Below are positions 27,798-59,982 of a DNA stretch of 64,000 nt, in pieces. The stretch spans positions 9,721 to 73,720 of the forward strand of contig JAQTMH010000001.1 in the NCBI GenBank assembly GCA_028714495.1, read 5' to 3'. The stretch comes from Patescibacteria group bacterium (lineage in GTDB: Bacteria > Patescibacteriota > Patescibacteriia > JAHIZJ01). The notes under the pieces were generated by a model that searched no databases, had not been told where the DNA came from, and saw nothing but the letters and a program-made list of their open reading frames with translations. The translations under genes and the position numbers were made by a program. Positions within the stretch are counted from its first letter, which is position 1. Every line of letters starts with the position of its first letter.

Positions 27798-27840
27798 TTC
27801 AAAGACGCCCCTCGGTTAGAGGCAGCGTCTTTAGATCAAA

Positions 27841-29397: not shown

Positions 29398-29400
29398 ATC

Positions 29401-31176: not shown

Positions 31177-31179
31177 ATT

Positions 31180-39805: not shown

Positions 39806-39827
39806 GATTGTAATAGTTAATCAGGCG

Positions 39828-39851
39828 CTATCATGCTATATAGCATGATAG
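39828..39851. repeat. REP-like perfect palindrome between paralogs A and B
   Basis: CTATCATGCTA-TA-TAGCATGATAG. Same CATGCTA-NN-TAGCATG core as 37567-37590. Confidence 0.6.
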
Positions 39852-39860
39852 CATTCACCA

Positions 39861-41309: not shown

Positions 41310-41310
41310 A

Positions 41311-42825
41311 TTATATTCGTTTTACTATCCCCTTAGTCGCATCAACCTCCACACGATCTCCATCTTTAAATACCTTGGTCGCGATTTTTGTGCCAATCAC
41401 ACAGGGCACGCCGAGCTCGCGCGAGATAATGGCGGCATGCGAAGTTATTCCGCCAGCATCTGTTACGATAGCTGATGCTCTTCGCATGGCTGGAACTAAT
41501 TCTGGAGAAGTTGCCGGTGATATAATAATGTCTCCAGCATCGAATTTCGCCAGATCAGAAGCACTGCGCAGAATAACCGCGTGGCCTTGCGCCCGGCCCG
41601 TACAAGCGCACATGCCCGTCAACTCCCGATAAGTCCCTCTAACTTTTAACGAGTTATTAATCTCATTTATCACCCGTTTGGCCTGATTGGCTGGTAAAAC
41701 ACTCCACTTTAAGCCATCAAGCCAAACCACGGTTTCCTTGGCTCGTTTGAGTAATTCCTTCCGGGTGTAATGTTTTTGAATCAAGACTCGACGCATTTCC
41801 CAAGGAGCCAGCGATTGAATGGCAATCAAAGGGACATTAATTCGTCTGGCTATTTCAACCAGCAGCTCATGAATTAAATATTGGCCTTGAACCGTCAACT
41901 TCTTACGCCAACGTTTCAAGCCGCCAATGTCCCGCAAGGTGATAAATTTACGGCGCTGGCTTGAATCCATTTTTAATCGCTTAAACCAGACGGCCTGCTT
42001 CTGCCTAACCGTTTTATCCGCATGTTTCAGGGCACTCAATTGTTTCTGAAGCTGTCGGCGTGGCTGGCTGGCGTGGCGGAGAATATCATCAAGCGTTTCT
42101 AGAAGTCTTTTTTTGGGGCCGCTGTAACCATACGACAAATAAGCAAACCGCTCATGGTAGGCGGAAATTCGCTTCAGGGTTTTTGAATCATTTTTCTGCA
42201 AGTAGGATAATAAAGCTTCTGGAGATTTGGATTTATTAATATCTGACCGTAAGACTATTTTTATTAGCTCAATTTCAGCCAGCCGGTTTTCATTTTCACC
42301 AACCGGCGTGGTCAGGACCGTAAAGATAGTCCCAGCATCTGATCGTAATCTTTTCGGCGCGGCTGTTTGAAGATATTCATATAGCGGACCGGACAAAACC
42401 GGCTCCTCAAACTCCATCACTGTTCCATAGGTACTGGCGGCCAAAATCCCCTGGGCTAATTTTGACCATTGCTCGTATAATTTTAATAGTTCAATATTGG
42501 CCAGGCTTCGCAAATCTGTCTGGTAAATCTTCTGTGATAGCTTTAAAAACGGTTTAATCAATCGGCGAGTTGTCTGCCACATCCAGGGTAAAAATTTTCG
42601 ATCGGTTTCCAGGCGCTCGAGGATTTTTCGGCCAGGTTCAGCTAAGCCGTTTTTTACCACGCATTCGCGAACCGAACGGCCATGGTAAATTAAAGCGATC
42701 GGTCCGGATCGGGCGCCGACCTTGTGTGAGGCGATTGACGCGCCCATGTAATAAAGCGTCATGGGAAAATTTGCCGCCGGCTCTTCATCAAGCTGTACCC
42801 ATTGACGCGAAATGACCTTGCTCAT
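41311..42825 (-). CDS. Protein with C-terminal PEP-utilizer phosphohistidine swivel domain (paralog C, 504 aa)
   Basis: C-terminal GGITSHAAIISRELGVPCVIGTKIATKVFKDGDRVEVDATKGIVKRI. 1-nt spacing to paralog B. Confidence 0.7.
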   Translation of the reverse strand: MSKVISRQWVQLDEEPAANFPMTLYYMGASIASHKVGARSGPIALIYHGRSVRECVVKNGLAEPGRKILERLETDRKFLPWMWQTTRRLIKPFLKLSQKIYQTDLRSLANIELLKLYEQWSKLAQGILAASTYGTVMEFEEPVLSGPLYEYLQTAAPKRLRSDAGTIFTVLTTPVGENENRLAEIELIKIVLRSDINKSKSPEALLSYLQKNDSKTLKRISAYHERFAYLSYGYSGPKKRLLETLDDILRHASQPRRQLQKQLSALKHADKTVRQKQAVWFKRLKMDSSQRRKFITLRDIGGLKRWRKKLTVQGQYLIHELLVEIARRINVPLIAIQSLAPWEMRRVLIQKHYTRKELLKRAKETVVWLDGLKWSVLPANQAKRVINEINNSLKVRGTYRELTGMCACTGRAQGHAVILRSASDLAKFDAGDIIISPATSPELVPAMRRASAIVTDAGGITSHAAIISRELGVPCVIGTKIATKVFKDGDRVEVDATKGIVKRI

Positions 42826-43754: not shown

Positions 43755-43890
43755 TTATTAAAAAGTTTGCGTTATTTATGCTTAAATAATAAGCTATTAT
43801 TGGTCATTTGTCCATCGGTAATCGGTATTGATACAAACGTAGGCGAGGATGATCATCCTCGCCTACTGCGAAACTATTATCCAAAATTAT

Positions 43891-45306
43891 TTATGTCACC
43901 AGCGTCAGCCGGTCCTTTTCTTTCCTTATCGTTGCCCACTTAAAAGTGCCGGTGACTGTATCGATAAAAGACGCCTTCAGGTATTTTCGGCCGAGAAGAT
44001 TGGCCAGTTTGGTGGCAATTCTGGCTGAATCAGACTCCAGCATCCCGATTTTGTTTCTTAGAATATACTGCAACCACAGGCTGTAAAAAATCGGGTCAGC
44101 CGGCATCTTGCTAAATTGATCCTCTGCCTCGACGCCGTATTTATCCTTGAGCGACTGGCGAAAACCCGCGTCAGCGGCCATGACCGTGAAGAAGTCCTGG
44201 GTTTTAGCCAAAACAATCAAAAAGGCCACCAGTTTAATCCGATCGCGCTTCTGAATCACCTCATCCAATTCTTGCCTAACATTAAGCGTGCCCTGGCCGA
44301 CTTGAGCTAGAATTGCCCTTTCTTCCTCGGCAATCGCTCTCTGCTCTTCGGGATTCTGGGTGTAGGCCTTGATTATATCTCTTGTCTGCAAATGTCTAGC
44401 TGTCTCTGGCTTAGTAATTTGTTTTTCCTCAATCTCTGGCTTTAACCGGTTAGTTGTTATCCTGTCAGTATCAATATTGTCTGGCGCGTTTCCTGTCTTA
44501 GTCTTTACTGGCGACATTGCGAGATATTTTGCCACCTCGGTTATATTCATCTTTTCTTTTTTATATTCCTCATATTTGTCTAAAACACCTCCGCGAATCG
44601 CCCCAATTGCATCTTCTTCATCGATGTCAGCCACCGACTCAAAACCGGCAGGATCATCAGATGGTGTCTTCAGCTTTTCAACCAAAATTAAAAGCGAACG
44701 CAATTTTTCTCGAGAGTCGGCAGAAATATTTTTCGTGTTAGGACTATTAACTAAGTAATCGGCAAGTTGTACTATCGGGATGCTCTTAGTGCCTAGATTG
44801 ATTACCGAATCTATAAGCCAGCTTTTGATCGTGCCCTTTTGTTCCACCCCGTCCTTAGTCACGGTCTCGGGAGTAAAAATCTCATTATTCTCCCTCAAGG
44901 CTTCAATAATTTTCCTTTTGTACAGGTTGCGGCTTTCCAGCGTCACCATGCTCACGAGAAGGCTTTTTATTTTTTGCCAGGGATCGTAATCAGGTATTTC
45001 ATAAACTAGCGAAAAATGGTTTTTAAAAAATTCTAAAGCCTTGTCTTCGGGATATTGCGTCAATGCGATAAAATTGAGTTTCCACTGCAGTCTGTCGTAT
45101 CCGCGATAAAGCTCGGGCGAGCTTGTCTCCAAGTCGCTCTGGAGTTCCAGCAATCGTTTGATGTTATCTGCCAACATAAAAGCCCCCTCGCTATTGTCAA
45201 ACTTAGCGAATTTTTCATAATACGACTGAAATTCTCTCAGGGTTTCCGGTTTTCGCAAATCCGGCAATTCAACTGGCGGTTTTTTAGTTGCGGAATTGAT
45301 AGCCAT
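43891..45306 (-). CDS. Hypothetical protein (471 aa)
   Basis: Soluble, charged, helical. No recognised motif. Last gene of the giant-protein operon direction. Confidence 0.45.
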   Translation of the reverse strand: MAINSATKKPPVELPDLRKPETLREFQSYYEKFAKFDNSEGAFMLADNIKRLLELQSDLETSSPELYRGYDRLQWKLNFIALTQYPEDKALEFFKNHFSLVYEIPDYDPWQKIKSLLVSMVTLESRNLYKRKIIEALRENNEIFTPETVTKDGVEQKGTIKSWLIDSVINLGTKSIPIVQLADYLVNSPNTKNISADSREKLRSLLILVEKLKTPSDDPAGFESVADIDEEDAIGAIRGGVLDKYEEYKKEKMNITEVAKYLAMSPVKTKTGNAPDNIDTDRITTNRLKPEIEEKQITKPETARHLQTRDIIKAYTQNPEEQRAIAEEERAILAQVGQGTLNVRQELDEVIQKRDRIKLVAFLIVLAKTQDFFTVMAADAGFRQSLKDKYGVEAEDQFSKMPADPIFYSLWLQYILRNKIGMLESDSARIATKLANLLGRKYLKASFIDTVTGTFKWATIRKEKDRLTLVT

Positions 45307-45329
45307 ACTATTAATATATACCTCAATCT

Positions 45330-48212
45330 TTAAGTAACAGACCTTTTAACATCATGAGCGCGCAGGGTTTCACCAACCTGTCTGATCTTTTCCATTTCGT
45401 CCGTAGACACGCCTCCTTCTTCCGGCTGGGTAGCGGCAAAGTGTTGCAACTGGATTAAAGCATTATCATATTCCTCTAACTTAACATCGACATATTTCTT
45501 CTGAAATACCGGGACCTTAGCATCAATAATCTTGCCATCGCTTCCCAGATACTCTTTCTTCAATTCGGGTGATGCTTCTTTGCTTCTAAGATAACGCTCG
45601 AGCGTACTCCTAGTTTCTGCTTCGGATTTCAGGGTTCTCTCGGTCATTTCGCGCAATGGCCCGGTCAATAAATCCATATTGTATCTGACCAGGTGTGCCG
45701 CGGCATTGGCGTTATATCGCTCTTTTCCAATCAGACTGCTGATAGCTGGAAATTTCTCCACGAACATCGAAGCCCCAGCCTGATTAAACCGTGAATATCG
45801 ACCCTTTGAGGGATCTTTCGGATCATACAGAAATTCATCGCAGGGTGATAATCGACTCGACCTACGCATATGATTTTCGAAATCCATTTTCGACTGCTCA
45901 ATTTTTGACCGCGTCTGCTGGTCATCTGTCGCCCGCTGAAAGAATTTGCCTCGCCTCGAACCAACTCCCTCGATAATTCCGTCATGTCCAGTCTCATAGG
46001 CGATTTTGCTGACGTCACTCTGGAGTCCAAAAGCGGTTTGCTTGTCCTGCCCTAGCTGCCTGACGAACGCTTCCTGGACAAAGGCGCTTAAGCCTCTCTG
46101 GCTATATTCAAAGTGGTCGCCAACCTCGGCAAATGGATTACCTTTATTGTCAAACTGTTTTTCTATCTGTTCTTTGGTCAATTCATGTTTTTTGATATAA
46201 GCCCTCATGTCATTCTCATTCATTACGCCTTCTCCGGCAATTCCTCTAGCCGCATCGCCCCGATGGTGATAATAGTTTGTCGTCGCCGCCGGTCCATAAT
46301 TACATAATTCATTTTCATGCCCGACTTTTGCCGCTTGGAGAAAAATTCCTCTAGCCGCATCAGCATCTCCGCGCGCCATAGCGCCATTGAACGAATCTAT
46401 CAATTCATCGGCAACGTTTGTCGGATATTTCTTTCTTTCCTCCTCGTCCTTAATCCGCCTCATTTGTTGATACAGAGTATCCCGAGGCGCATACCCCTCC
46501 CAGTGCGCTATATCTTTTTTTAAACGATTCACTTGCGAACTCGCGCTGTCCCTTCTCCTGACTGCCGCTATATATTCATCTCCGCCATGTTTCTCAGCTA
46601 ATTCCTTCTGGACCTGGGCAACTATTCTCGGATCATTGATATCTTTTATTCCTGTCTTATCGGCAATTTCACGCTGTCTATTTAAGTATTCAAATGCCAG
46701 CGCGGGGTTTTTTGCCACTGCTTCTTCTATATCTTTTGTCGCTTTATCAGCGCTGCTTAGACCTTTTTCCTTTTCTCGAAGATCTTCGTCTTTTTTCTTT
46801 AACATACCCTTATGGACCAGGGTCTTTAAACCATGAGAATAAGCAAAACCTCGAAAATATGTCGTAACCAGAGAAGGCGCAGCCGCCCCTAATAACGGAG
46901 CTGTGAGGCCGCCTTTCATTAGTCTTTCCTCGGCATACATCTGTTTGAGAAAATCCTCCTCGCCGCGCTTACCAGCCATTCCCCGTTTGATGTTCTGATA
47001 CACATCCACGGGATTGAGCGGCAGACCTTTTAATCTTTCTCCGCCCAGCCATTTTGGCAAACGGCCGGCTGAAGCCTTTCTTGAAAGCCAGTTATAACCT
47101 TGAAACGGCGCCTTGGCGATCCTCGAAGAAACCCCCTGCCTGACTGACTGGGCGAGATTACCACCCAGAGTTTTTAATTCGTTCGCCGCCATGCTCGCCG
47201 CGAAGAGCAAAGCCACGGCCACGATATAATTCATCAAATTTTTCGAACTGGAAATGTCTGAAATCGCCGCGGAGATGCCTAACGGGTTCACTGAATCCTC
47301 GGTGGTTGTAAGACTGTTATTCGCGCCAGCGCTTGCCAATTCTTCACCCGCCTGCCCGGGATGAGCCGGATTAGATAATACGGTCATGGCCAACCACAGG
47401 AAAAAAGCCAAAACAGGCCCCACTACCAAATATTGTCCGAACATCTTCCACCACTTCGAAGCCAGGGACTTCATCTTGTCCATGGCCTCGCCCAGATAAG
47501 CCAACGGCGACAATACCACTAAAATCCATAACATTAGAATCCGCCCCAGCAGAATAATCGTTACCATCAGCACCGCCCCGATCATAATGGCCAGCAAAAT
47601 AATGCCTAAGATGATGGCGCCGATCACCTCGCCCACCTCGACCTTCTGGTCGCCGATCTGCTCGGAAAACATCAAAATTTTCTGCAGGCCCGCCCCGCTG
47701 GTCAGATTACCCGCCGCCGCGTCCTTAAAGGCGTTGACAAAAGTCATCATGATGACTTGCGACAAGTCAATGAAAAATCCGGCAATCGACTTCGAGAAAT
47801 TTATCAGGAAAGCCATGAGGATAAATTTCGGCAAGGAGCGTTTGTAATGATACGATTCGATCCTCATGACCGTGCCCCAGGCGATGATCAGCAGGACTAT
47901 TATTAGCAGCATGTTGCAAAGATCGCGCACCGCTACCCAGCCCTTTTCAACCGCGTATGACCTGACGAAATTATTAAACTTGGCGACTGTCAACATTATG
48001 TCGATCAGCACCAGCAATAATTTACCAAGCAAGGAGAGTATGGTAAATAGGACTTTTGCCAAAAAATTAGCCAACGTTTCATCCAATGGACCAAACAGGC
48101 CTGCCCGCGCCGGGGACCAGGCAACCAAAACTCCTATCAATATAAAAACTACCGAGCCGATAATCAGCCAGCGCCGCGTCTTTTGACTGGGATGGAAATC
48201 TAATCTAAGCAT
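45330..48212 (-). CDS. Polytopic membrane protein (960 aa) with large hydrophilic C-terminal domain; possibly VirB6/TrbL-like
   Basis: Seven to eight TM helices in the first ~330 aa, then ~600 aa charged/helical. 10-nt gap to the giant gene. The VirB6 analogy rests on topology only. Confidence 0.5.
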   Translation of the reverse strand: MLRLDFHPSQKTRRWLIIGSVVFILIGVLVAWSPARAGLFGPLDETLANFLAKVLFTILSLLGKLLLVLIDIMLTVAKFNNFVRSYAVEKGWVAVRDLCNMLLIIVLLIIAWGTVMRIESYHYKRSLPKFILMAFLINFSKSIAGFFIDLSQVIMMTFVNAFKDAAAGNLTSGAGLQKILMFSEQIGDQKVEVGEVIGAIILGIILLAIMIGAVLMVTIILLGRILMLWILVVLSPLAYLGEAMDKMKSLASKWWKMFGQYLVVGPVLAFFLWLAMTVLSNPAHPGQAGEELASAGANNSLTTTEDSVNPLGISAAISDISSSKNLMNYIVAVALLFAASMAANELKTLGGNLAQSVRQGVSSRIAKAPFQGYNWLSRKASAGRLPKWLGGERLKGLPLNPVDVYQNIKRGMAGKRGEEDFLKQMYAEERLMKGGLTAPLLGAAAPSLVTTYFRGFAYSHGLKTLVHKGMLKKKDEDLREKEKGLSSADKATKDIEEAVAKNPALAFEYLNRQREIADKTGIKDINDPRIVAQVQKELAEKHGGDEYIAAVRRRDSASSQVNRLKKDIAHWEGYAPRDTLYQQMRRIKDEEERKKYPTNVADELIDSFNGAMARGDADAARGIFLQAAKVGHENELCNYGPAATTNYYHHRGDAARGIAGEGVMNENDMRAYIKKHELTKEQIEKQFDNKGNPFAEVGDHFEYSQRGLSAFVQEAFVRQLGQDKQTAFGLQSDVSKIAYETGHDGIIEGVGSRRGKFFQRATDDQQTRSKIEQSKMDFENHMRRSSRLSPCDEFLYDPKDPSKGRYSRFNQAGASMFVEKFPAISSLIGKERYNANAAAHLVRYNMDLLTGPLREMTERTLKSEAETRSTLERYLRSKEASPELKKEYLGSDGKIIDAKVPVFQKKYVDVKLEEYDNALIQLQHFAATQPEEGGVSTDEMEKIRQVGETLRAHDVKRSVT

Positions 48213-48221
48213 TATGAAAAT

Positions 48222-51200
48222 TTATGAGGTAACTTTTACAATTCCTGAGAAATAGCTCGAACAATAGGCGGGTGAACTGCCGCAAGGGAACGGCTCCGCT
48301 TCAGACCATCGACAAGTCGCGAACGGCGTATCACCGCCCCGGCACGCTCCTTGGCAGCTACCACCAAAACACTCAGCATTATTAGCGCATTGCTGGCCGT
48401 CACGATCACCACCAGAACAATTTCCGCTGCCCTTTTCCCAATTGTCCTGAACCCACACTCTCACGTAGCAGCCATCTGCACAGCTTGGATATACATACTC
48501 ATGGTGGGCATAGTGATAGGGACCATCGGGATTTGAGAGCGGTCCGATTGCTACGTTTATTGTCTGGAGGGGTGTGCCGTCGCCCCAGTCAATAAATATA
48601 TTCTTTATTGGTATCTGTTCAGAATCGACCGTCGAATTAAAGCTCAATATGGCCGTGCCGCCGCCGTTTGGAATTTGTATTGCCCCGGTCCGGTTGTTAA
48701 TCTTGATATTAAATACCGACGGCTGGATCCAACAATAATCATAGGGAAAGCCGCTGGTTTGATCGGGCCGCGTATCAGAACTTTCGCCGGTATTATTTAC
48801 TAAGCGGCATTGAGGCATGCTAGCGAAATCATTGTTATAGGCTGTCCTAAAGAGCGTGGTGTCTTCGAAATATTTAGTGTCGCCCGGATTATAAGTCAGG
48901 CCGTCATCAATCTGATTGCAATAATTATCAGGATTTGTGTAGCCGCCCTGTAACTCATCGCATTGCTGTCCAGACAGTAGGCCGCCAACACAGACCTTAT
49001 CACCGCATTTATCCGGCGCACTAGGGCATTCTTCAATGACGCAGGGACAATCATCCTCGACATTACATCCTTCGCCAATATTATCGCCGACCGTGCAGAC
49101 ACCAATATATTCCTCACAGACGCCGCCGCTCACTCCGAAACAAGCCGCGTCAGAACCGCAGGCCTGGCCGCAGTAATATCCGCAACCTCCGGTTTGCTCA
49201 TCACCTTGCCAGGCGCAAACTGCTTCAGCGCAAAAACCATCCGGCACCTGATTGCCGTGTTCGTCAATGCCCCCCTCGCAATCATTGTCGTCTTCACAAG
49301 CCAGCTTGTCGTTTAAGCCTCCGACGCAGACTGCGTCAGCGCATACCCCCCCGGCTCCGCAAACGCCGGTTTCTTCGCAAAGCTCAAGCGACGTACTGCA
49401 CCTTTCTCTTTCACTGCAGGCCACTCCAGGTTCACAATTGCACCTATTAGCGCTCTTACGGCAGATATCCGCGTCGCTAAGGCAGGTGCCTAAACCCTGA
49501 CAATAATTCTGAGGCGTACCATTTGAAGCGCAAAGCTGGCTCGGCCGGCCGCTGCATACTCCATTAGCGCAGAAGCCGCCTGTGCCCTCGCAGTCGCATT
49601 CAAAAGTTCCGTAGGTACATTTGGAATTTGTATTGCAGGTATAAGTAGTCGGGCAATTGTTTTCAATGCTGCACGACACTGTTGTGTCTCCGTCACAACG
49701 CTGTCTCACCGCGCCGCACATATTGTCTACGGGCAGACACACATCCTTTGGCGGTGGCAGGCCTATGCAATCATCATTAGTCACACAAGGCCTGGAGCCT
49801 AAGGTTCTGCCTCCGCACCACCAACCGCATTCCTCATCTTCCGTGCAAGCGGGACCAGTAAGGTCATCCTGACAAACCGTGACCGTGGTGCAAGTGCCAA
49901 TACCCGGACAGTCGCAGTCTGGATTTGTGTTGGAAACGCACTTTTTATCTCCGCCGACCGAGGAACAGGTCGCGCCGAGCGGACAATTATTTGATATCGA
50001 GCAGGCTGCTCCTGGTTCATCTCCGCCTTCGCAGCGCTCGGATACACAGGCATCGTCTCCTCCGCCAGTACAAATAGAAAGGCCACAGGTTGTGGTCGTT
50101 CCCTCACAGACCCATTTGGGTTCACACACTTCTCCTGCCGGACAGCCGCAAGGCTCACCTTCTTTTTCACCGCCGACGCAGATTTTACCAGCGCAAACGC
50201 CGGCCGCGATATTACAATTCGAATTATCACCTTCGCTGCAGTTTTCTCCGGCCAGCAGGTAGTCCGGGTTACTCGAGGTGCAGGAATATTCATTCACGTC
50301 CGTACACCGTCCATCACCCCAGACCCAGACGCCTAGCACGTCGGCAAAAAGCCTCTCAACCCTCTTCAAACCTAAGCCACCGCCTTCAGCTTCATAACCT
50401 GTCGGCGGCTGTCCGGGCAAGGGCGGATACCCGGGCATGGCCGGATCCAAGCTCCCACTGAACTGCTCAATCGGCTTAAAAGTACTCGGAAATACGTCAT
50501 CGCAGGCTGTTACCCCGCTAGTATTGTGCTTGCACGAATATGGCGCTCCAGCCCGGGCAAGCTCTAAATAACTTGAATCCCAGAAACTCGCGTATGGATT
50601 TAGATCACCGCTTAGATAATAAATCGGCTGCATTTTTGATTTCAAATCATAGGCCTCGGTAAAAGGATCTCCCCAGGCCGAGTTGAAGTCCGAATCCCAG
50701 GTTCCCGGGTCATTAATGTCATTCGTTCCTTCAGCAGTCAGGCTCTGTTCGCCGGGTGGCACTAGGCTGCCGTAGTTATCTAGGTCCGAAGTGGGTTTTT
50801 CCGTATAGCCGATATCCCAAACCGCCGAGAGACCTCCATTTATCCTCTGCGCCCAAGCCGTGTTCTCGCCGTTTGAATCAACCGCCCGGCCGACCACATC
50901 ACAGCGCAGCGCCAATACTTCGGTCTTCAAATATGGGTAATCCCAGGGGCTGTTTCTTCCGCCGACAAGATTTCCATCAAAAGGCGCCCAGAAGCCAGCC
51001 AGGGGTTCTTTTTTACTCGTATATTCTAACGGCTCATCATGATCATCCCCATGTTCATAGTAATCGCAAACATCGCTCGACGGTATCCCATCTGGAATGC
51101 AAACATGCCAGCATTGATCCTGGTGACCGCCACCCCTGACAGCCTTTTCGCAGAGGAATTTATAATAACCATCAGCGCATTTATGGTTATGCGCGTAATT

Positions 51201-54200
51201 GCAGTTATGAAATGCTACGGTGTAGGGTCTCCGATATTCATAGAAGCTCGACTGAAGACAATAATAGAGCGGGGCATCGCCATAATATCCGACGACTTCG
51301 CCACCGCCGAAAATATTCGATTCGCCTTCAATAATATCAACCGGCCACCACTGCAGGCAAATATTAGAGTTCTGCGGATCACGCTCAAGGCAATAGCCCT
51401 TCCAACCCTTGTAAATACGGCTTTGTTCATCGACATAATCACAGGAGAGGGAATTGGCCGCGGGATAGAGCCGGCAAGACCGCTGAACCATGCGCTCGTC
51501 ATCGGGAAGTTCCGGCGGCTGGTCAGTCGCCTTCTTTTCCAGGACGGCTTGAAGCAATATGTCGTCTAAATAGAATTTTATCGGCGGCTCAAGCCCTCCG
51601 CCCTCGCCGTTGGGCAGAGCTTTCACAAAACTCAAATACGTCTGGCTGACAACATTGTCTGTTTTCAAGCTAAGAGTATAGTACTGCCAAAAATCAGTAG
51701 CGATCACCCGGCCGAATTCCTGGCAATTGTCGTTGTCATCGTTGTTATAGCAGTATTGAACCTTAATTGTCTCTCGCGAATCACTTAAAATTCTAAAGCT
51801 GATAATATAATTGCTGTCATTTTGCACCAGCGAACTCATCGAGGTTTTGGCCCCAGCATCCCGATCGGATGGATTAACCATCAATACTTTATTGTCCCCC
51901 GGATTTTTGGGATCATCAATCACGCTGATGTTGCTGGGAATCTGTTCCATGTTTCTGGCTTGCCAGGGACTGATACTGCCATTTTCGAAATCATGGTTCG
52001 GTAGATCCAATCCGCCGCCGATTTGCCTCATCGCGGCTGTCGGATAATAGCCGTGAACTACCCGGCAAATATTGCCGTCATTGGGTGTGCCACATTGATC
52101 ATCCTGGCAGCCGTTGGCTACGCCCGGACAATCATCTTGATCCCGGCATAATCCGCCGTCATTTTCACCGCCTTCGCATATTCCATCGCGCCAACACGAG
52201 GCACCATCTGCGGAACAGCCCCAGGTTAGTCCCACTCTCGAATAGCCGGAGAGATACCTGACCGCGTCTACCGTGGCCGGAGTATAAGTCAAATCAGTCG
52301 GGTGCGATGGAGCGGTGACCAAACGTTCAAGATATTCAGCCGGGGCCGGGGTGTCCGGATGCTCATATTGCGGAGGACGGACGCACTTGCCATTATTTTC
52401 GCAATCAGCGTCCAAACGGCAGGCTCTTTTCGGATCATTGTCGCACTGTCCTTCGCCCACCGGCTTGGTGCATTCGCCGTTCGAACCCATCTCCTGGCAA
52501 TTGCCGATGTCGTAACAAAGTCTCTCGTCTTGCCCATCCTGATTCGTGGAAGTGAAGCTGGTCTTGCAGTAAAGCCATTGATTGCAGACGCGGTCCCGAT
52601 CAACCTTGATAATGGTATTTGAATCGGCTTTACAATTGTCCACGCCTGGGCATTGGACCGGGCTGCCCTTATTTTCATCAATATCGCCGTAGGTCAGATC
52701 GCTATCATAGGTTAACTGGCCGCCGCTGGTATTATTAAAGAGGATGCACCCTTCGTCGGAATTAACCACGCCATAGCATGACGCCGTATCCGTCGAACCC
52801 TTTATGTAATAGTAAGGTTGACAGCCCGGCAAATAGTCTCCTGGCTCGCTGTAAGCGAAAGGATCGCAGTCTCCGTCTAGTTTATAGAAATTGCCCTGGG
52901 CGTCATACTCCACCCGGCAAGAAGCGCGGCAACCCTGATAAACGCACTCGCCGCCATCGCCGCAAGCAGAGTCAGAATCACAGTAGGCCCCAGGGGTCGG
53001 ACCGCCGGCGCAGATTCTATTGTTAGTGCTGGACACCAAAGATGGCTGCGGGTCTTGCGGATCACGGTACTCGTTGCAGCCGCTGGCCTTGTCTTTACAT
53101 TCACCGACCCAATACTCCGAGCAGGAAAGGCCAGCAACACCAGTTATGGACTCGCTGCAATCATCATCGGTCTGGCAGGCTCTTTCGGCGCAATAGCCGT
53201 CATTATCGCCATCTGAATCAGCGCATCCGAAATCCGGATCGTTCGGGTCAGCGTCAGAATCGCATGATTGACCAGCCCGATTACCGCCGTAGCATACTTC
53301 CGCGTGATCAGTGCAGAATCCGTCATTATCGCTGTTTGGATCATCACAGCCCAGGACCGGATCCTGACCGTCTGCCTGAGAGCTGCATTTCTGGTCATTA
53401 CGGTATCCGCCGTGGCAATATTCCTGCTGCTGCGGACCGCATACTTTGGTCGGCTGGGGATTTCCCAGATACTGTTCGCAACTGCCGTCAGGGCACTCGC
53501 CGCCTCCGCCAAAACAGGCCTTGCCTGCATTAGCCCCACCCACACAGGTATATTTCTCGACCGGACAAAGTTTATCGCTTCCCGCCTTAAACCAAGTATC
53601 ATAAAGCTTGCCCAGGATATTTACGCCGGTCCGATATTCGCAGGTCTGCTCGTTCGGGTCTTTGAAATTCGCATAGCTTCCGCCCTCACCGCCGATCGCG
53701 TATGCCTCGCAGGCCTGCTGCGACGCTTCGCAAAGACTGGTGGCATAGTTGTCAGGAACATTCCTAAGGTAAACGGTGTCATATTTATTGACCCGACCGT
53801 CCTGATCGAAGCTTGGTCGGCCGAGAGCCTGGCAGCCTTTTGCCTCGGCCTGGCAATAGCGCTTAGAGTCATTGACCAATGGATGCACGCTGTCAGCCAC
53901 CGTGACCTGGCCTAGGGTATCGGTCTCAAAAGGTGAAACAGAATTCTGGGTATCAATCACGCTTTCACAGCCAACTTTTTCCGGCCGGCACAGGCTGGTG
54001 AAACTCTTTAAGTAATAATCATTCTTTTTACTGTCTCGATAAAGAGAGCAGCCCACCCATTCATCCGGACACTCATTAAAGCTGTTGTATTTAAGATAAA
54101 CATTGCCCTTAGTTTCCCAGAGGATGATATTGTCAATGAAAAACGCGCTGGTGCCGGAAATCTTGAATACCTCATTAGGATCGACATTGGCCAAAAACTG

Positions 54201-57200
54201 GGCTGGACCGAGCACGTAACGATTCCAGCCTTGCTTGGTAGCAACCGCCTCGCCGGCAAAACTAGTGCCACTGGGATCAAAAGAAGCGGTCAGAGTCGAG
54301 TCCGCGTCCACGGCCTTGGCCCAAAACTCCACCAGATAGGTCCGGCCAGTTTCTATCAATGAGGAAACTGAATATCGCATTTCAGAGGGCACTCTGACTG
54401 AAAGGCCGCCGGCCTTGAGCGACTCTGAGCTGATTGCGACTTCAGCCGGCTCCCAACCGTTGGCATCGCCATCTTCAAAATCATCCTGGATAACCCGGCG
54501 GATATTGTAGCCGGTGCTGCCTCGATATTCACGGCAGCCAGCCTGATTACTCGGGCATCTGATACTCTGGGCCGGGATGGCGTTATAGACTGTGCCGTCC
54601 AGAGTATTTCTCAAAGGATGGCAATCGTCAGAACAAGTTATTGTTTTCGTATTCAAACACAAGTAGCTGTTACCGTTCTGGGCATAGTATGGAGTGCAGC
54701 CAGCTTCAGTCGCGGGATCGCAATCACATGTCCCATCAGTTAATTCAGGCGGTCCGCTCGCCGAGCCTTTCAATGATTCGGCCACCAGCTGATAACCTCG
54801 AACATCATCACCTTCCCAGCGGTAATAGGTCGCGCACTCTGGTCCGGGCTTTAAGCACTGACGGATATAAGTATAGTATTCCAGGCCTTCGCCGCCCGCC
54901 GCCACTTCGTCAAGATTAGTGTATTCCTCGCAACCGACGTAGGCGGCTTCGCAGGTTTGGCCGCTCTTGGCGATTAAATTGAAATTAGGCAGACCGGTTT
55001 CCTGATTAATGCCGTTTCTCTCAACCAGGCTTAAATCAGTACCATTGGCTAACGACATCTGCATATACGATTTGCATCCTTCAAATTCAGCCGGGCAATA
55101 ATCAGCCGGAGTGACTACGCCGGGCACCTTGTCGCCTGCTTCAGCCGGGTCATAAAGTTCACAGCCGACCTCATCCATCCGACAAACCAAGGACTCTGAT
55201 GATAAAGACATGCCAATATTATCAACTACTCCGCCACTAAGATTAATTCGAACAAAGGCCGCGCCGCTATTATCAGCCTCTATGCCAAAATCAACCCAGG
55301 TCCATGAGCCATTATCAGCTATGACCTGAGTCCTGGCGTCACTGGCATTGGCAGTCAGATTACAGTCAGCCAAGACGGCGTGGCTTTGGTCCAGACATTC
55401 AGTTGTAATCGGGGCGGCGGCTCCGCCAGTCTTGACCCAGGCATAAACATCATAACGGGAACCTGGGCTTACCGAGACGTCTTGGAAACCGCCCGAACCA
55501 GCGTATTTGTCTCCATAGCCCGCGTCAATGTTTATGGTTGTACCGATCCAGCCGTCAGCCGAACTGTTGCCTGGCTCTCGCGAACTACGATAACCCGCGC
55601 CAATGCCCGGATCATTATTGTACGCCGGATAAAAATCAGTGCCGTTATCAATACTGAAACTGCCATTAGCCACTAGATTCTCACTCTGGTCTTTGACATA
55701 AATTTGATTGGAGCCGGCGTAGTTGACATAAGAGGTAACATCACCCAGTTCAAGCTGAACCGCATCAAGATAGAGTTGGCAAGCCGGCTTGATAATTTTG
55801 AGACCGATCTTGGTGTCATTATCAAAAGGCGTTTCCGGCCGATCTGGAATCGTTGCCGAAACCACCAGTCTCTTCCACTCTCCGGCCGCTATATCAAACG
55901 ACGGATATTGAACTGGATCAACATAGTTTTCCATGATATCATCGCCGTTATGATCAGCGCCTATCTGCATTTCTAGTCCGTTGCAGCCATCGCTCGAGCG
56001 GCCGAAAAACGAGAGGGTAAAAGATTTTCCGTAAGTTTGGGCTGCCGTATCAATCGTATATTCTAGCGCGCCGGACCCGGTAGTCAGCATTGAGTAGCTT
56101 CCCTCATACATCTGGCTAGTGGCATAGGTTGTAATTGTACCGTCTTTCTTCCACTCCCAGTGCGGGTAGCTCGCCATGAAATTATCGGCAAAATTTGAAT
56201 CTGGCGGATCACCCTGGTCATCGGCTTTGCCTGAATCAGGCAGACCTTCGATCTGGCCAAACGACTCAAAGCCCGAATTAGCCACTAAGTTGGTTCCGGG
56301 CACGAGCCTGATGTATTCATGGCAGCCCTGATCTTTCTTTTCACATCCTTCGACGCTGCCGTCAAAGCGTATTTTATCGCCGGAGGCGAGATAGTCTTCC
56401 GAACTGCAGACAAACGAATCCAGGCCAGTCGAATAATCCTGGCAATACCACTGGCAACCGGCGTTATCGCCTGAACAAGAATCGTAATTTACCGTATTTT
56501 GAATATAGGAAACGGTTTTATTATCCGAGTCGGTGAACGTCTGGCAACTGTTTTCGTAGGCCTCGCACTCTGTGCCCTGGAATTTCCAGATCGGCTTTTC
56601 TTCGGTACAGTAGCCGTAAAATTTACAGCTGCCGTCCTCCGCTTCGGCGATACAGGTCCTTTCGTCAGCGCAATAGTTGTTTCGGCTCACAATCCGCTGG
56701 GGCTCATCGGCTTCGTTAATGACATCATCACCATTAGTATCTTTGGTTCTTTCATACTGGTCCGTGACCAGTTGCTCGCCCGGTCCCTCGCGCTTGCAGA
56801 AAGTGTCGGATACCTTCAAAACCCAGTTGGGGTCAATAAGATGATAGAAAGGATTATTTCCGTTTTCCGGTGTCGGCTCAACGTCATACAGATCAACCAG
56901 CTCTTGCAGGCCGAAATTCTTTGCCGGCGAAACGTAATTTTTTATGTAAAGCGCGGCCGCTTCCCAGGTCGATGGGATTATTCGGTATTTTCTTAATATC
57001 ACAAGGCTGCGGTAGGGATAGCCATTGAAATATTCTGGCTCCTGGCCAGTGGCGTCATAGCCAAACGTCCGATCGCCTTTGAGGAGTCCGGCTTCAAGCG
57101 CTTCCTTCACCGTCATCTTCTGATCAAGCGCCGCCCGAAAATCATCGTCTATTACGCAATTATTCGTTTCCTTGAACTCAGCTGGACAGCTTACTAAAGT

Positions 57201-58217
57201 ATTTAATATATCGATTGGTCCGCGCACCCGGAAACTCGGCTTGGTTAATTCCAAATTATAACTCTTGGCCGCCGCGATGCCCGGCCGGCCCATCCCGCCG
57301 GGCGTCAGCGAACCATAATCGGATGGAGCAACGCCCTTTTCAAATATGGTTTTATATAACCGGCTGATCAAGGTATTGGAAAATATATCGATAGCATCGG
57401 CAATAATGCTGCCCGTCGTTGTCGTTTCAGCCTTAGTCGCCATCTCAAGAGTCTTATTAATCACCGCCTCATCCCATTCTCTTGAGGTTTTTATATCCCC
57501 GGTAACAGTATCTTTTGTACCCTCGAAGCTGCTGGCAGTCCGTTCTAGCTCGGCCGTAGCCTTAGCTTCGTACTTGGTATCCGAAACTGTGGACAGGATT
57601 GACATAAAAGCGCCGATCTCGCTCGAGGTGTAATCAAAGCTTTTCTGAAAATCAATCATATCGCTGGTGGTCATCTTACTGATCCGGTCGATATTCCTCT
57701 CTATCTGATGGAGCGGGCATTTAAAAGTCTTATCAATGTCTGGTTCCAGAGTACGCCTGGCCATGATAGTTAGTTTGATCTGCACTTGCGGAGTAAAGGT
57801 GCAAAGGCTCTTGCCAAAATAGGCGGTAGTAATATTATCCAAAAATTCTCCAGCCGCTCCGTCACCAATTTGCTGCATGAATTTACCCGGATTAGTCCAG
57901 AAAAGTGGTTTTTGCCCCTTGCCGCCAGAGCCCAAATAGACTGCCGCGTCATAGGCGACTTTATTGGCAAAATAAGAAAGCGCTTTTTTGTAAGCCACCA
58001 TTCCCGCGTTCTGGGCTACGAACTTCGTCAAAGTCCAGATATAGCTAATCGTATCAGGTATACTGGCCAGAACGCTCACCGGAAAGCCTGCCTGGGTCTT
58101 TGGCACGGTAAATAAAAAGACTCCCACTAAGGAAGAGAAGACAACCGAGAAAAGCATTCCGACAATAAACAATCTAGCGCTTTTTCTTCTGGGAGATTTT
58201 GATTTAGAAGCTTCCAT
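48222..58217 (-). CDS. Giant (3331 aa) Cys-rich cell-surface protein with N-terminal signal anchor
   Basis: Uninterrupted 10-kb ORF. N-terminal MEASKSKSPRRKSARLFIVGMLFSVVFSSLVGVFLF anchor. The C-terminal ~1500 aa are extremely Cys/Gly/Asp-rich with recurring C-x-x-G-x-C, CVGG and D-x-D-x-D-G-x-C (thrombospondin-type-3-like) repeats. Confidence 0.8.
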   Translation of the reverse strand: MEASKSKSPRRKSARLFIVGMLFSVVFSSLVGVFLFTVPKTQAGFPVSVLASIPDTISYIWTLTKFVAQNAGMVAYKKALSYFANKVAYDAAVYLGSGGKGQKPLFWTNPGKFMQQIGDGAAGEFLDNITTAYFGKSLCTFTPQVQIKLTIMARRTLEPDIDKTFKCPLHQIERNIDRISKMTTSDMIDFQKSFDYTSSEIGAFMSILSTVSDTKYEAKATAELERTASSFEGTKDTVTGDIKTSREWDEAVINKTLEMATKAETTTTGSIIADAIDIFSNTLISRLYKTIFEKGVAPSDYGSLTPGGMGRPGIAAAKSYNLELTKPSFRVRGPIDILNTLVSCPAEFKETNNCVIDDDFRAALDQKMTVKEALEAGLLKGDRTFGYDATGQEPEYFNGYPYRSLVILRKYRIIPSTWEAAALYIKNYVSPAKNFGLQELVDLYDVEPTPENGNNPFYHLIDPNWVLKVSDTFCKREGPGEQLVTDQYERTKDTNGDDVINEADEPQRIVSRNNYCADERTCIAEAEDGSCKFYGYCTEEKPIWKFQGTECEAYENSCQTFTDSDNKTVSYIQNTVNYDSCSGDNAGCQWYCQDYSTGLDSFVCSSEDYLASGDKIRFDGSVEGCEKKDQGCHEYIRLVPGTNLVANSGFESFGQIEGLPDSGKADDQGDPPDSNFADNFMASYPHWEWKKDGTITTYATSQMYEGSYSMLTTGSGALEYTIDTAAQTYGKSFTLSFFGRSSDGCNGLEMQIGADHNGDDIMENYVDPVQYPSFDIAAGEWKRLVVSATIPDRPETPFDNDTKIGLKIIKPACQLYLDAVQLELGDVTSYVNYAGSNQIYVKDQSENLVANGSFSIDNGTDFYPAYNNDPGIGAGYRSSREPGNSSADGWIGTTINIDAGYGDKYAGSGGFQDVSVSPGSRYDVYAWVKTGGAAAPITTECLDQSHAVLADCNLTANASDARTQVIADNGSWTWVDFGIEADNSGAAFVRINLSGGVVDNIGMSLSSESLVCRMDEVGCELYDPAEAGDKVPGVVTPADYCPAEFEGCKSYMQMSLANGTDLSLVERNGINQETGLPNFNLIAKSGQTCEAAYVGCEEYTNLDEVAAGGEGLEYYTYIRQCLKPGPECATYYRWEGDDVRGYQLVAESLKGSASGPPELTDGTCDCDPATEAGCTPYYAQNGNSYLCLNTKTITCSDDCHPLRNTLDGTVYNAIPAQSIRCPSNQAGCREYRGSTGYNIRRVIQDDFEDGDANGWEPAEVAISSESLKAGGLSVRVPSEMRYSVSSLIETGRTYLVEFWAKAVDADSTLTASFDPSGTSFAGEAVATKQGWNRYVLGPAQFLANVDPNEVFKISGTSAFFIDNIILWETKGNVYLKYNSFNECPDEWVGCSLYRDSKKNDYYLKSFTSLCRPEKVGCESVIDTQNSVSPFETDTLGQVTVADSVHPLVNDSKRYCQAEAKGCQALGRPSFDQDGRVNKYDTVYLRNVPDNYATSLCEASQQACEAYAIGGEGGSYANFKDPNEQTCEYRTGVNILGKLYDTWFKAGSDKLCPVEKYTCVGGANAGKACFGGGGECPDGSCEQYLGNPQPTKVCGPQQQEYCHGGYRNDQKCSSQADGQDPVLGCDDPNSDNDGFCTDHAEVCYGGNRAGQSCDSDADPNDPDFGCADSDGDNDGYCAERACQTDDDCSESITGVAGLSCSEYWVGECKDKASGCNEYRDPQDPQPSLVSSTNNRICAGGPTPGAYCDSDSACGDGGECVYQGCRASCRVEYDAQGNFYKLDGDCDPFAYSEPGDYLPGCQPYYYIKGSTDTASCYGVVNSDEGCILFNNTSGGQLTYDSDLTYGDIDENKGSPVQCPGVDNCKADSNTIIKVDRDRVCNQWLYCKTSFTSTNQDGQDERLCYDIGNCQEMGSNGECTKPVGEGQCDNDPKRACRLDADCENNGKCVRPPQYEHPDTPAPAEYLERLVTAPSHPTDLTYTPATVDAVRYLSGYSRVGLTWGCSADGASCWRDGICEGGENDGGLCRDQDDCPGVANGCQDDQCGTPNDGNICRVVHGYYPTAAMRQIGGGLDLPNHDFENGSISPWQARNMEQIPSNISVIDDPKNPGDNKVLMVNPSDRDAGAKTSMSSLVQNDSNYIISFRILSDSRETIKVQYCYNNDDNDNCQEFGRVIATDFWQYYTLSLKTDNVVSQTYLSFVKALPNGEGGGLEPPIKFYLDDILLQAVLEKKATDQPPELPDDERMVQRSCRLYPAANSLSCDYVDEQSRIYKGWKGYCLERDPQNSNICLQWWPVDIIEGESNIFGGGEVVGYYGDAPLYYCLQSSFYEYRRPYTVAFHNCNYAHNHKCADGYYKFLCEKAVRGGGHQDQCWHVCIPDGIPSSDVCDYYEHGDDHDEPLEYTSKKEPLAGFWAPFDGNLVGGRNSPWDYPYLKTEVLALRCDVVGRAVDSNGENTAWAQRINGGLSAVWDIGYTEKPTSDLDNYGSLVPPGEQSLTAEGTNDINDPGTWDSDFNSAWGDPFTEAYDLKSKMQPIYYLSGDLNPYASFWDSSYLELARAGAPYSCKHNTSGVTACDDVFPSTFKPIEQFSGSLDPAMPGYPPLPGQPPTGYEAEGGGLGLKRVERLFADVLGVWVWGDGRCTDVNEYSCTSSNPDYLLAGENCSEGDNSNCNIAAGVCAGKICVGGEKEGEPCGCPAGEVCEPKWVCEGTTTTCGLSICTGGGDDACVSERCEGGDEPGAACSISNNCPLGATCSSVGGDKKCVSNTNPDCDCPGIGTCTTVTVCQDDLTGPACTEDEECGWWCGGRTLGSRPCVTNDDCIGLPPPKDVCLPVDNMCGAVRQRCDGDTTVSCSIENNCPTTYTCNTNSKCTYGTFECDCEGTGGFCANGVCSGRPSQLCASNGTPQNYCQGLGTCLSDADICRKSANRCNCEPGVACSERERCSTSLELCEETGVCGAGGVCADAVCVGGLNDKLACEDDNDCEGGIDEHGNQVPDGFCAEAVCAWQGDEQTGGCGYYCGQACGSDAACFGVSGGVCEEYIGVCTVGDNIGEGCNVEDDCPCVIEECPSAPDKCGDKVCVGGLLSGQQCDELQGGYTNPDNYCNQIDDGLTYNPGDTKYFEDTTLFRTAYNNDFASMPQCRLVNNTGESSDTRPDQTSGFPYDYCWIQPSVFNIKINNRTGAIQIPNGGGTAILSFNSTVDSEQIPIKNIFIDWGDGTPLQTINVAIGPLSNPDGPYHYAHHEYVYPSCADGCYVRVWVQDNWEKGSGNCSGGDRDGQQCANNAECFGGSCQGACRGGDTPFATCRWSEAEPFPCGSSPAYCSSYFSGIVKVTS

Positions 58218-58222
58218 ATTTA

Positions 58223-59050
58223 TTATTCTTGGGGGGTCTCATCAATCGCCTGGTTGAAAATCGATTTCAGTGTTTCGTCATCTACTCCGCTCAGGGTGTC
58301 TGCCGGAATGCCGGACAGCTCCATCAGTGTTCTGATTTCAGCGGCGCTAAGCTGTCGGAGTTTATCAATCGACAAGTCGCTGGTCAGGTCTGTCTGATTT
58401 TGATTATTAACGCTGGTATTTGAATTGGCCGGCGCCTGATTGACGTTCGCGTTTACCGTTTCCTCCTTGAGAGCGTCCGCGTACATCTCCCTCAAATCGG
58501 CATCGCTGATTTGATTCAGCTTTTCCTCTGGCACGCCGGAACTTAAGAGCACTTCCCGAAGCTGTTCAATCGGCAATTCATCGGGAGAAGGATTTACATT
58601 CGCGTTTGACGAATTGCTATTGGAGTTGGCATTAGTCGGGAGATTGGCATTCGTCGAGGTATTGGTATTTTCATTGAGCAGATCGTAAAGATTCGTCTGA
58701 GTGTTTGTATTAGCCGTCGGTGTGCGGCAGGTTTTTCCTTCGGGACAATTCGGGTCCGTTCCCATCTGCAGCTCCTGTTTATCAGAAACACTATCGCTAT
58801 CAGAATCTGCCAGGTAGGGCGAGGTGTCATAGATATAAAGTTCGTCAAAATCCGACAACCCGTCATTGTCCGTATCTTTTTGCCGAAGAGCTTGAATTTC
58901 AGCTGTGGCAACTTTTTCGTTGGACGTCTCTGCCAAATCACTAAATGGTCCTTTGATCGACTTGGCCACCTGAAAAAAACCCAAGACTACGCCAGACAGA
59001 CCGACTGCCAGAATAATCCCCGCTATGGTTTTATCTTTTATTTTCATCAA
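58223..59050 (-). CDS. Membrane-anchored protein with thrombospondin-type-3-like Ca-binding repeat and Asn-rich low complexity
   Basis: TM anchor, DTDNDGLSDFDELYIYDTSPYLADSDSDSVSD (DxDxDGxxDxxE repeat) and an N/T/S-rich middle. Its stop lies 6 nt before the giant-gene start. Confidence 0.55.
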   Translation of the reverse strand: MMKIKDKTIAGIILAVGLSGVVLGFFQVAKSIKGPFSDLAETSNEKVATAEIQALRQKDTDNDGLSDFDELYIYDTSPYLADSDSDSVSDKQELQMGTDPNCPEGKTCRTPTANTNTQTNLYDLLNENTNTSTNANLPTNANSNSNSSNANVNPSPDELPIEQLREVLLSSGVPEEKLNQISDADLREMYADALKEETVNANVNQAPANSNTSVNNQNQTDLTSDLSIDKLRQLSAAEIRTLMELSGIPADTLSGVDDETLKSIFNQAIDETPQE

Positions 59051-59133
59051 ATAATTTTGTTTTCTAACCGTTCAATATATGGGAATATTGCTCAAATTTT
59101 ACTACCCCATTATATCACATTAGATGGTATGTG

Positions 59134-59982
59134 TCAAATCGAGGTTTTTGCCTGATTTGTAGCCTTTTCTTGGGTATTTATAGATGTTACCAACATATTC
59201 CAGTCGTCTAGTGACAGCTCCTGGGCTCTGGCTTTTAGGCTAATGCCGCACTTATCAAAAATCTGGTTTATCTCCGAGACATCCAGATGTAATCCGGCGC
59301 GTAAATTATTCTGAAGCTGTTTTCGCCGGGAGGAAAAGCCGATACGGACCAAGCGGAAAAAATCCTTATCCGACTCTTTGGTTTCTCTCAAATGATTGAT
59401 CTGAACCACCGCCGAATCAACTTCCGGCTCAGGCCAAAATAATTCTCGCGGCACTAAAAACATTTTTTTAACGTCGGCGTAATATTGAACTGATACGGCC
59501 AATAAACTTAATTCTCCGGGCTGGGCAGTCAGCCGATCAGCCACCTCATTCTGAATAAGCAAGGTCAGGCTTTTGGGCTTAGGCGGCTGGGAAATAAATT
59601 CCTTGAGCAGATGCGCTGTCAAATAATAGGGCAGGTTAGCTACTATCTTATAATTAAACTCTGGCAAGCTTGAGCCGGCTTTTGCCCGCCAATAAAAAAT
59701 ATCATCACAGATTATTTCGACATTGGAATATGTTTTTAAATTCTTTTTTAAAATTGGCAAAAGCCGGCGATCGCGTTCAACGGCAATAACCTTTTTGCAG
59801 GCTTGGGCTAATAGTTCAGTCAGATTGCCCGGGCCAGCCCCGATTTCAAGCACTAGGTCTTCTTGTGTCAGGTTCGCGGCGCCAACAATTTTTTTAAGAG
59901 TCGCCTGGTCAATTAAAAAATTTTGACCAGTGTCTTTATCCGGCTTATGGCCAAAATCTCTAAGCTGTTTTTTTAGATCCAT
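59134..59982 (-). CDS. rsmA: 16S rRNA (adenine1518/1519-N6)-dimethyltransferase
   Basis: GQNFLIDQATLKKIV, LEIGAGPGNLTELL SAM-binding motif. 282 aa. Confidence 0.85.
   Translation of the reverse strand: MDLKKQLRDFGHKPDKDTGQNFLIDQATLKKIVGAANLTQEDLVLEIGAGPGNLTELLAQACKKVIAVERDRRLLPILKKNLKTYSNVEIICDDIFYWRAKAGSSLPEFNYKIVANLPYYLTAHLLKEFISQPPKPKSLTLLIQNEVADRLTAQPGELSLLAVSVQYYADVKKMFLVPRELFWPEPEVDSAVVQINHLRETKESDKDFFRLVRIGFSSRRKQLQNNLRAGLHLDVSEINQIFDKCGISLKARAQELSLDDWNMLVTSINTQEKATNQAKTSI

Follow-up and report, generated by a model that had tools for sequence, protein, structure and literature searches.

The 64-kb window analysed here is the whole 64,000-nucleotide stretch taken from a metagenome-assembled genome (MAG) of the Patescibacteria, a group of ultra-small bacteria. 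Its minus strand carries a four-gene operon, A to D, whose second gene encodes B, a giant cysteine-rich protein. Our results are best read as placing this operon in the known type IV secretion system (T4SS) locus of the Patescibacteria, as its envelope-side half, detached in this genome from the half that encodes the ATPase. We propose, with moderate confidence, that the operon supplies an envelope-side module of an ABY1-like, Gram-positive-related T4SS and that B is an adhesin for host glycans acting with that system; B is probably the means by which the secretion machine grips the host cell. What emerges is a secretion system already known, equipped with a giant accessory protein that is very widespread and has not been described; our literature searches found no account of this conserved giant family or of its link to VirB6.

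The proteins encoded by the four genes are deposited at NCBI under locus tags PHI73_00260 to 00275, and the genes are separated by 5, 9 and 23 nt (A-B, B-C and C-D, respectively). An earlier note on this DNA, made from the sequence by itself, had placed the four genes on one strand, where we also find them; the spacings of 6 and 10 nt that it gave were each off by one, the C-D spacing was absent from it, and the close packing that it described is real. Upstream of A stands a promoter-like site that agrees with the sigma-70 type at 12 of 12 positions, and a strong terminator-like hairpin follows D (Table 1). Because these signals bracket exactly A to D, the genes form one transcription unit, as the note had supposed. 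The flanks are housekeeping in nature, with KsgA, major facilitator superfamily transporters and Sua5 upstream and a DUF475/TerC protein followed by three paralogues with a phosphoenolpyruvate (PEP)-utiliser domain downstream. Relatives of the cassette carry the names Falkow-, Kerfeld-, Komeili-, Veblen-, Buchanan- and Uhrbacteria, which we take to indicate that the source lineage belongs to the ABY1-like part of the Patescibacteria.

Table 1. Coordinates of the operon, of regions within B and of the related block outside the operon (window numbering; residue numbers refer to B).
Feature	Position	Strand	Remarks
Gene A	58223-59050	minus	275 aa from TTG; NCBI start is ATG at 59047, 274 aa; MDD5341763.1, PHI73_00275
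Gene B	48222-58217	minus	3331 aa; MDD5341762.1, NCBI name 'carbohydrate binding domain-containing protein'
Gene C	45330-48212	minus	960 aa; PHI73_00265
Gene D	43891-45306	minus	471 aa; MDD5341760.1, PHI73_00260
Promoter-like site	59109-59137	minus	TTGACA, 17 nt, TATAAT, with TG upstream; 12/12 sigma-70-type match; ~60 nt upstream of A
Terminator-like hairpin	43839-43866	minus	12-bp stem with 7 G-C pairs, T-rich tail; 25 nt past the D stop codon
B 1-43, probable Sec signal peptide	58089-58217	minus	K/R-rich start, ~20-aa hydrophobic core, VPKTQA/GF (slash, predicted cleavage)
B 44-560, family-defining N-terminal domain	56538-58088	minus	long helices, compact alpha/beta part (~340-470), Cys-rich beta-hairpin region
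B ~688-795, weak CBM_4_9-like beta-sandwich	55833-56156	minus	E 1.3e-4, below cut-off
B 2074-2197, CBM_4_9 module	51627-51998	minus	best Pfam match, 72.4 bits against a cut-off of 25.9 (PF02018)
B 2591-3110, densest Cys/Gly/Asp region	48888-50447	minus	68 Cys, 13%; no Pfam match
B ~3150-3262, conserved C-terminal domain	48432-48770	minus	IDWGDG...DNW motifs; PKD-like by motif only; no Pfam match
DsbA-like pair	27841-28638, 27018-27797	minus	confirmed
Glutaredoxin/thioredoxin (Grx/Trx)-like protein	28867-29397	minus	176 aa; weak TraF-like match, E 0.021
lgt	25861-26637		confirmed
Coupling protein (T4CP)/VirD4-like ATPase	29401-31176	minus	NCBI 'type IV secretion system DNA-binding domain-containing protein'

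An open reading frame (ORF) as long as B could be a mis-assembly or a decaying pseudogene, both raised in the earlier note, and its richness in cysteine would then have no function. The source is a MAG, and in a sister MAG A and D lie on different contigs, both of which speak for an artefact. Against this, three other assemblies (L002-L004 in our set of loci) carry orthologues of 3314-3320 aa that are collinear with B from end to end, at 33-76% identity per 100-residue bin and with cysteine conservation of about 100% in many bins. The ORF has no internal stops, it belongs to a family of 1288 clusters that are mostly 2200-3600 aa long, and an independent Logan assembly joins the same 3′ end of B to C and D. 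The collinear orthologues, the NCBI deposit and the Logan 3′ end agree, and we therefore reject both forms of the artefact, which can be regarded as effectively refuted. B is an intact and conserved gene.

The link to secretion begins with gene C. Its product had been described as a protein with 7-8 transmembrane (TM) helices and a large soluble tail, and that topology was borne out, while the likeness to VirB6 had been overlooked. Of the 8 hydrophobic segments that can be recognised in C, one is a probable signal peptide; about 7 TM helices lie in residues 1-345, and an AxA motif is kept after the first segment. By the positive-inside rule the arrangement is N-out, 7-TM, C-in, which places the charged, cysteine-poor tail of ~560 aa (residues 400-960) probably in the cytoplasm. 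Among 5.8 billion proteins searched, C has over 600 relatives, nearly all of them patescibacterial. A few distant members of this family carry a precomputed TrbL/VirB6 assignment (PF04610), one has the JGI name 'VirB6-like', and 6 of 27 homologues gave the same weak, below-threshold TrbL match as C itself (best 1.5e-4). The PDB sequence and profile search with C had no match. An AlphaFold model built on a 78-sequence alignment had a mean predicted local distance difference test score (pLDDT) of 84.5, with long helices at 80-96 and values above 95 for residues 580-930 of the tail. When this model was compared by Foldseek with 350,542 PDB chains, the five best matches were all TrwI/VirB6 of the R388 T4SS stalk, with probabilities of 0.89-1.0. 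The two proteins differ in that sequence identity is 11-16% (PDB 7o3v, 8rtd) and the 560-aa tail of C is without a structural relative. Tail length varies within the family, whose members range from 817 to 2082 aa. The combination of a VirB6-type membrane domain and a large hydrophilic tail fits 'extended VirB6', a recognised class (PMC12857230), and taken together these lines mark C as a probable extended VirB6-like channel subunit of a T4SS.

The gene order in relatives ties the whole operon to that system. One genome per GTDB species was scanned with the C alignment, which yielded 80 loci from 80 assemblies, and the ORFs of these loci were compared by phmmer and jackhmmer. The co-occurrence of the four genes held up, with the order A-B-C-D recurring across these Patescibacteria loci. 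The recurrent array reads A, B, an optional ~200-aa gene, C, D, X (~500 aa), PrgI/VirB3 (150 aa), a TrsD-like protein (225 aa), VirB4 (~630 aa) and a ~200-aa membrane protein; beyond these comes DsbA in 17 loci, and in 20 the cluster ends with RadA. A B-family ORF stands upstream of C in 48 of the 56 loci that have at least 9 kb of upstream flank, and an A-like gene directly precedes B in 19/21. Of the 52 loci whose downstream flank extends for at least 7 kb, 41 contain VirB4 there, among them 19 of the 28 in which the giant N-terminal domain is seen. Pfam, applied to one representative locus, recognised PrgI and P-loop_TraG/AAA_10, and the NCBI name of that ATPase family is 'VirB4-like conjugal transfer ATPase, CD1110 family'. 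Since the four genes are contiguous with PrgI/VirB3, the TrsD-like gene and VirB4 in most relatives, the unit is part of the Patescibacteria T4SS. The optional gene between B and C is found in 39/80 loci (for example, L015:9323-9931 and L070:9169-9849) and is missing from the window, where 9 nt separate the two genes. We also considered whether loci that have the giant N-terminal domain and loci that lack it might be two paralogous types, and dropped the idea: the apparently 'short' B genes begin right at the border of the 10-kb flank and are probably incomplete.

Loci with no adjoining VirB4 include the closest relatives of the window, L002-L004, in which D is followed by PEP-utiliser paralogues, as it is here. 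In L064 the block of PEP-utiliser paralogues stands between D and X-PrgI, an arrangement that suggests that insertion of the block split the T4SS locus. In the window these three tandem paralogues, of 480-504 aa, occupy 38363-42825 on the minus strand; each joins a C-terminal PEP-utilising-enzyme mobile domain to an unannotated N-terminal part of ~400 aa, and homologues adjoin the giant/VirB6 cassette in 13 related loci.

B itself is predicted to be exported. It had been thought to carry an N-terminal signal anchor; a P-x-x-A-x-A motif stands after the hydrophobic core, as it also does in the majority of the orthologue N-termini listed, and this conserved AxA site points to a Sec signal peptide that is probably cleaved. 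Mature B would have a mass of ~356 kDa and a pI of 4.3. Cysteine accounts for 190 residues, or 5.7%, whereas its share in the remaining 38 proteins encoded in the window is 0.82%; in B it is dense from residue ~500 onward and peaks in residues 2591-3110, a lineage-specific insertion common to the nearest relatives only. Part of the earlier account of this composition had to be revised. The richness in cysteine stands, whereas the dense Cys/Gly/Asp 'repeats' do not: comparison of B with itself by BLAST found no internal repeats, only conserved cysteine spacing, and we therefore dropped the label 'repeat protein'. The 'dozens' of C-x(2-4)-C pairs come to 22, and the further TSP3-like D-x-D-x-D-G motifs, although present, number just 2. 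A degenerate C-x-G-G...C...C motif occurs in 9 copies, against 0.3-1.0 in shuffled sequences. The cysteine-rich parts matched nothing in Pfam, NCBIfam, PHROGs or PDB, and hence no characterised adhesin family there. An origin from phage was considered and is without support, as the PHROGs search had no matches.

The N-terminal domain (residues 44-560) defines the family. An HMMER/phmmer scan of 1.84 billion representatives, with clusters at 50% identity, put the family at no fewer than 1288 clusters with E<=1e-3, of which 739 reach E<=1e-30, and almost every member has 2200-3600 aa; a word-indexed search of the 5.8-billion-protein database with the N-terminal 900 aa had returned 15 matches, and it was the exhaustive phmmer scan that showed the real size. 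No Pfam model covers this domain. The modules that can be recognised in B are carbohydrate-binding modules (CBMs). Besides the best match, for which Pfam also reports a second stretch, and the weak sandwich in Table 1, a related module lies at ~1240-1385, and CBM_4_9 is present in 13 of 16 family members. In the PDB the sole relatives of the family profile are CBMs of laminarinase, xylanase, endoglucanase and hyaluronate lyase, the best being laminarinase CBM4 (1gui, 3.4e-5); the weak sandwich at ~688-795 gave a weak profile match (E 0.24) to a type IX secretion system C-terminal target domain protein. Glycan binding by the CBM_4_9 modules of B would follow from these similarities. A protein that is exported, acidic, rich in cysteine and equipped with CBMs is most economically read as a surface adhesin, and these properties favour the extracellular adhesin suggested in the earlier note.

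The same modules also invite a different explanation. CBM_4_9 modules normally go with glycoside hydrolases, the PDB relatives include those of laminarinase, xylanase and endoglucanase, and about 80% of B, including a highly conserved core at residues ~2240-2320, is unannotated. B might thus be a secreted enzyme that degrades polysaccharides or attacks cell walls through an unrecognised catalytic domain, serving in feeding or in breaching the host wall, as proposed for the giant genes of predatory Omnitrophota. However, searches of Pfam, NCBIfam and PDB, made with the complete B and with pieces of it, detected no catalytic domain, and we consider a hidden enzyme distinctly improbable.

The genes on either side of B and C are constant companions. 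A is a membrane-anchored, predicted calcium-binding TSP3 protein, much as had been described: hydrophobicity indicates one N-terminal TM segment, Pfam TSP3_bac (PF18884) matches two stretches (27.8 bits, cut-off 25), and the DxDxDGxxDxxE motif is present once in exact form, as DTDNDGLSDFDE at residue 59, along with a second TSP3-like stretch; the motif is kept in homologues. A also has N/T-rich linkers, a C-P-x-G-x-x-C pair and a duplicated helical motif of ~45 aa. Its homologues retain an N-in signal anchor followed by an x-P-F motif, with no AxA site, as well as two TSP3 repeats, the cysteine pair and the duplicated motif. That A anchors the giant protein is plausible from the position of A-like genes directly upstream of B. 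In a JGI protein, P0129 (895 aa, from a 3-kb contig), an A-like TSP3 part and a B-like N-terminus share one ORF, either as a true fusion or through a missed stop. D, soluble as described earlier, is free of cysteine and has no PDB or Pfam relative. It adjoined the VirB6-like gene in 55 of 70 loci in one count and followed C in 72 of 80 in another, and it is sometimes fused to X in related loci; D is a constant cytoplasmic partner of the VirB6-like C.

About 20 kb from the operon lie two DsbA-like oxidoreductases, a Trx-like protein and lgt, all of which proved real. The proposed link between the giant protein and oxidative folding gains from the relatives: in 17 related loci the cluster itself includes a DsbA-like gene. 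The block at 27018-31176 also contains the T4CP/VirD4-like ATPase, a homologue of which precedes the VirB6-like gene of L034 by ~8 kb, and the block is probably related to the operon though outside it. This second T4SS-flavoured block (27018-32613, minus strand) includes a 477-aa protein that belongs to no family, and lgt comes after the block. Directly upstream of the 477-aa/T4CP-like genes, at 32637-33797 on the minus strand, is a gene for a 386-aa protein with sigma-70 region 4 and HARE-HTH domains.

RadA, DprA and the T4CP-like ATPase raise the possibility that the cassette serves DNA uptake or exchange, with the T4SS working as a ComB-type import or conjugation machine and A and B capturing extracellular DNA or mating partners. 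RadA is the last gene of the cluster in 20 loci, comF, recG and radA occur in ABY1 T4SS loci (PMC12102498), and the window contains DprA as well as the 'DNA-binding domain' ATPase. Yet relaxases are rare in Patescibacteria T4SS loci (PMC12102498), the Southlakia T4SS is essential independently of ComEC (PMC12857230), and the recognisable modules of B are predicted to bind carbohydrate rather than DNA. A role in DNA traffic therefore seems very improbable.

With these components we can outline how a host-glycan adhesin might act with the T4SS. B would be exported by Sec, its signal peptide probably being removed, and DsbA-type oxidoreductases would oxidise its 190 cysteines into disulfides. The conserved N-terminal domain would keep B at the surface, held by the VirB6 assembly, by protein A or by both, so that the CBM_4_9 modules and the conserved C-terminal domain could project outward and bind host glycans. 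The epibiont would thereby be held with the T4SS channel facing the host envelope. A bolder version, which we regard as possible though doubtful, makes B an integral extracellular part of the T4SS. Its helical N-terminal domain would sit on VirB6 where VirB5 sits in R388, and in ABY1-type Patescibacteria the pilus would have been replaced by a single ~350-kDa tether, knotted by disulfides and stiffened by calcium, in which variable distal CBM and cysteine-rich inserts set host range and A acts as a membrane clamp.

Alternatively, B could be a stand-alone surface adhesin, tether or glycan-capturing protein that shares a promoter and a neighbourhood with the T4SS genes and does not work with them. 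The cassette is separated from VirB4 in the window and in L002-L004, B has its own predicted Sec signal peptide, and the contact between B and the T4SS is one that we infer. On the other hand, the order of B followed by a VirB6-like gene persists across dozens of species-level genomes at 27-56% protein identity, which usually marks functional coupling, and DsbA is kept in the cluster in 17 loci. We think independence from the T4SS rather unlikely.

Several results weigh against an adhesin coupled to the T4SS. The match of C to TrbL/VirB6 (PF04610) scored 17.5 bits (E=0.0037), where the gathering threshold is 25.9; the Foldseek E-values of C are just 0.02-0.09; and 72,556 plasmids searched by tblastn with its membrane domain yielded nothing. 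AlphaFold modelled residues 1-570 of B, on 16 sequences, at a pLDDT of 53.8, with only residues 340-470 confident; Foldseek with this poor model returned noise, and docking of the N-terminal domain on VirB6 draws no direct support from it. About 80% of B is without any match, and the CBMs that do match also occur in enzymes. B has no LPXTG motif, no C-terminal TM segment and no lipobox, so its retention at the surface is an assumption. Finally, no homologue of VirB4, PrgI, the TrsD-like protein, X or Y lies in the 64-kb window, and this genome's VirB4 is not among the best 120 VirB4 homologues. The cassette is thus either at least 44 kb away from the ATPase half or works in its absence.

How the locus compares with described systems bears on the same question. 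T4SSs are established in Patescibacteria, and in Saccharimonadia epibiotic growth requires the system (Wang et al. 2023, PMC10633639). A 2025 survey (Quinonero-Coronel et al., PMC12102498) described VirB4, TrsD, VirB3 and VirB6 together with VirB2 arrays in the phylum, with radA, recG and comF in ABY1 loci, and reported 'no adhesins such as PrgB'. The loci examined here resemble these MPF-FATA-related systems: they come from the same phylum, related loci combine a VirB6-like protein with PrgI/VirB3, a TrsD-like protein and a CD1110-type VirB4, and they are chromosomal, with no relaxase seen and with RadA nearby as reported for ABY1. In contrast, the published accounts deal with VirB4 neighbourhoods and arrays of VirB2-like pilins, and leave the giant cysteine-rich protein, its TSP3 partner and D unmentioned; in this genome, moreover, the cassette is detached from VirB4. 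In R388, VirB6 carries a VirB5 pentamer, whereas no VirB5 homologue is recognisable in our locus. Set against the VirB5/TraC type, the N-terminal part of B has a probable signal peptide and long helices; PDB sequence and profile searches with it gave no match, and its model (pLDDT 53.8) was too poor for comparing folds.

In the enterococcal plasmid pCF10, the surface proteins PrgA, PrgB and PrgC are encoded ahead of PrgH (VirB6), PrgI (VirB3) and PrgJ (VirB4) and provide target-cell contact for a monoderm T4SS. The genes for the putative surface proteins have the same 5′ placement here, but B has no sequence or domain similarity to PrgA, PrgB or PrgC; it is ~2.5 times larger, rich in cysteine and CBM-bearing, and lacks an LPXTG sortase signal. 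Among adhesin families, the PrgB type included, B had no match in Pfam or NCBIfam, and there is no LPXTG-like motif near its C-terminus. F-type conjugation offers a second parallel, in which the cysteine-rich TraN stabilises cell-cell contact and the thioredoxin-fold proteins TrbB and TraF are encoded in the same gene cluster. The likeness would lie in pairing a cysteine-rich exposed protein with clustered thiol-disulfide oxidoreductases. Unlike B, TraN is an outer-membrane protein of diderms of ~600 aa, and B showed no similarity to it in Pfam, NCBIfam or PDB; the sole trace is the TraF-like match of the Grx-like protein in the window.

Giant FhaB-domain proteins of Patescibacterium danicum, class ABY1, have been read as host adhesins (PMC11809585). 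They are, like B, giant predicted exoproteins of the same class. They differ in being lineage-specific, with no full-length homologues, in carrying FhaB/DUF2341 domains and in not having been linked to a T4SS, whereas the B family is widely conserved, collinear and VirB6-adjacent.

No T4SS before that of Patescibacteria had been shown to be essential for its own carrier bacterium, and the sole phylum-wide survey that we found reported no adhesins; the B family provides testable candidates for host recognition and host range in a sizeable share of uncultivated bacteria. It is large and unannotated, and it is encoded directly upstream of a VirB6-like gene across many species, together with a small TSP3 partner. 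Annotation centred on VirB4 misses half of the locus where the locus is split, as it is here. The N-terminal domain of B, with the boundaries defined above, is offered for modelling against VirB6.

Further features of the window and of the related loci were recorded in passing. Proteins with a Por secretion-system C-terminal sorting domain (Por_Secre_tail), unexpected in this phylum, are encoded at L017:5927-7216 and L070:15794-17125. At 35016-36689 on the minus strand of the window, a SecD-like protein unusually joins an export component to a folding catalyst: a PpiC-type peptidyl-prolyl isomerase domain (residues ~144-238) is inserted after its first periplasmic segment and ahead of the P1 head. 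The GC content falls to 0.38-0.42 in positions 12001-16000, against ~0.48 elsewhere. Several ORFs in this stretch have no Pfam match, and within it, at 12988-13365, lies a 125-aa ORF with 4% cysteine.

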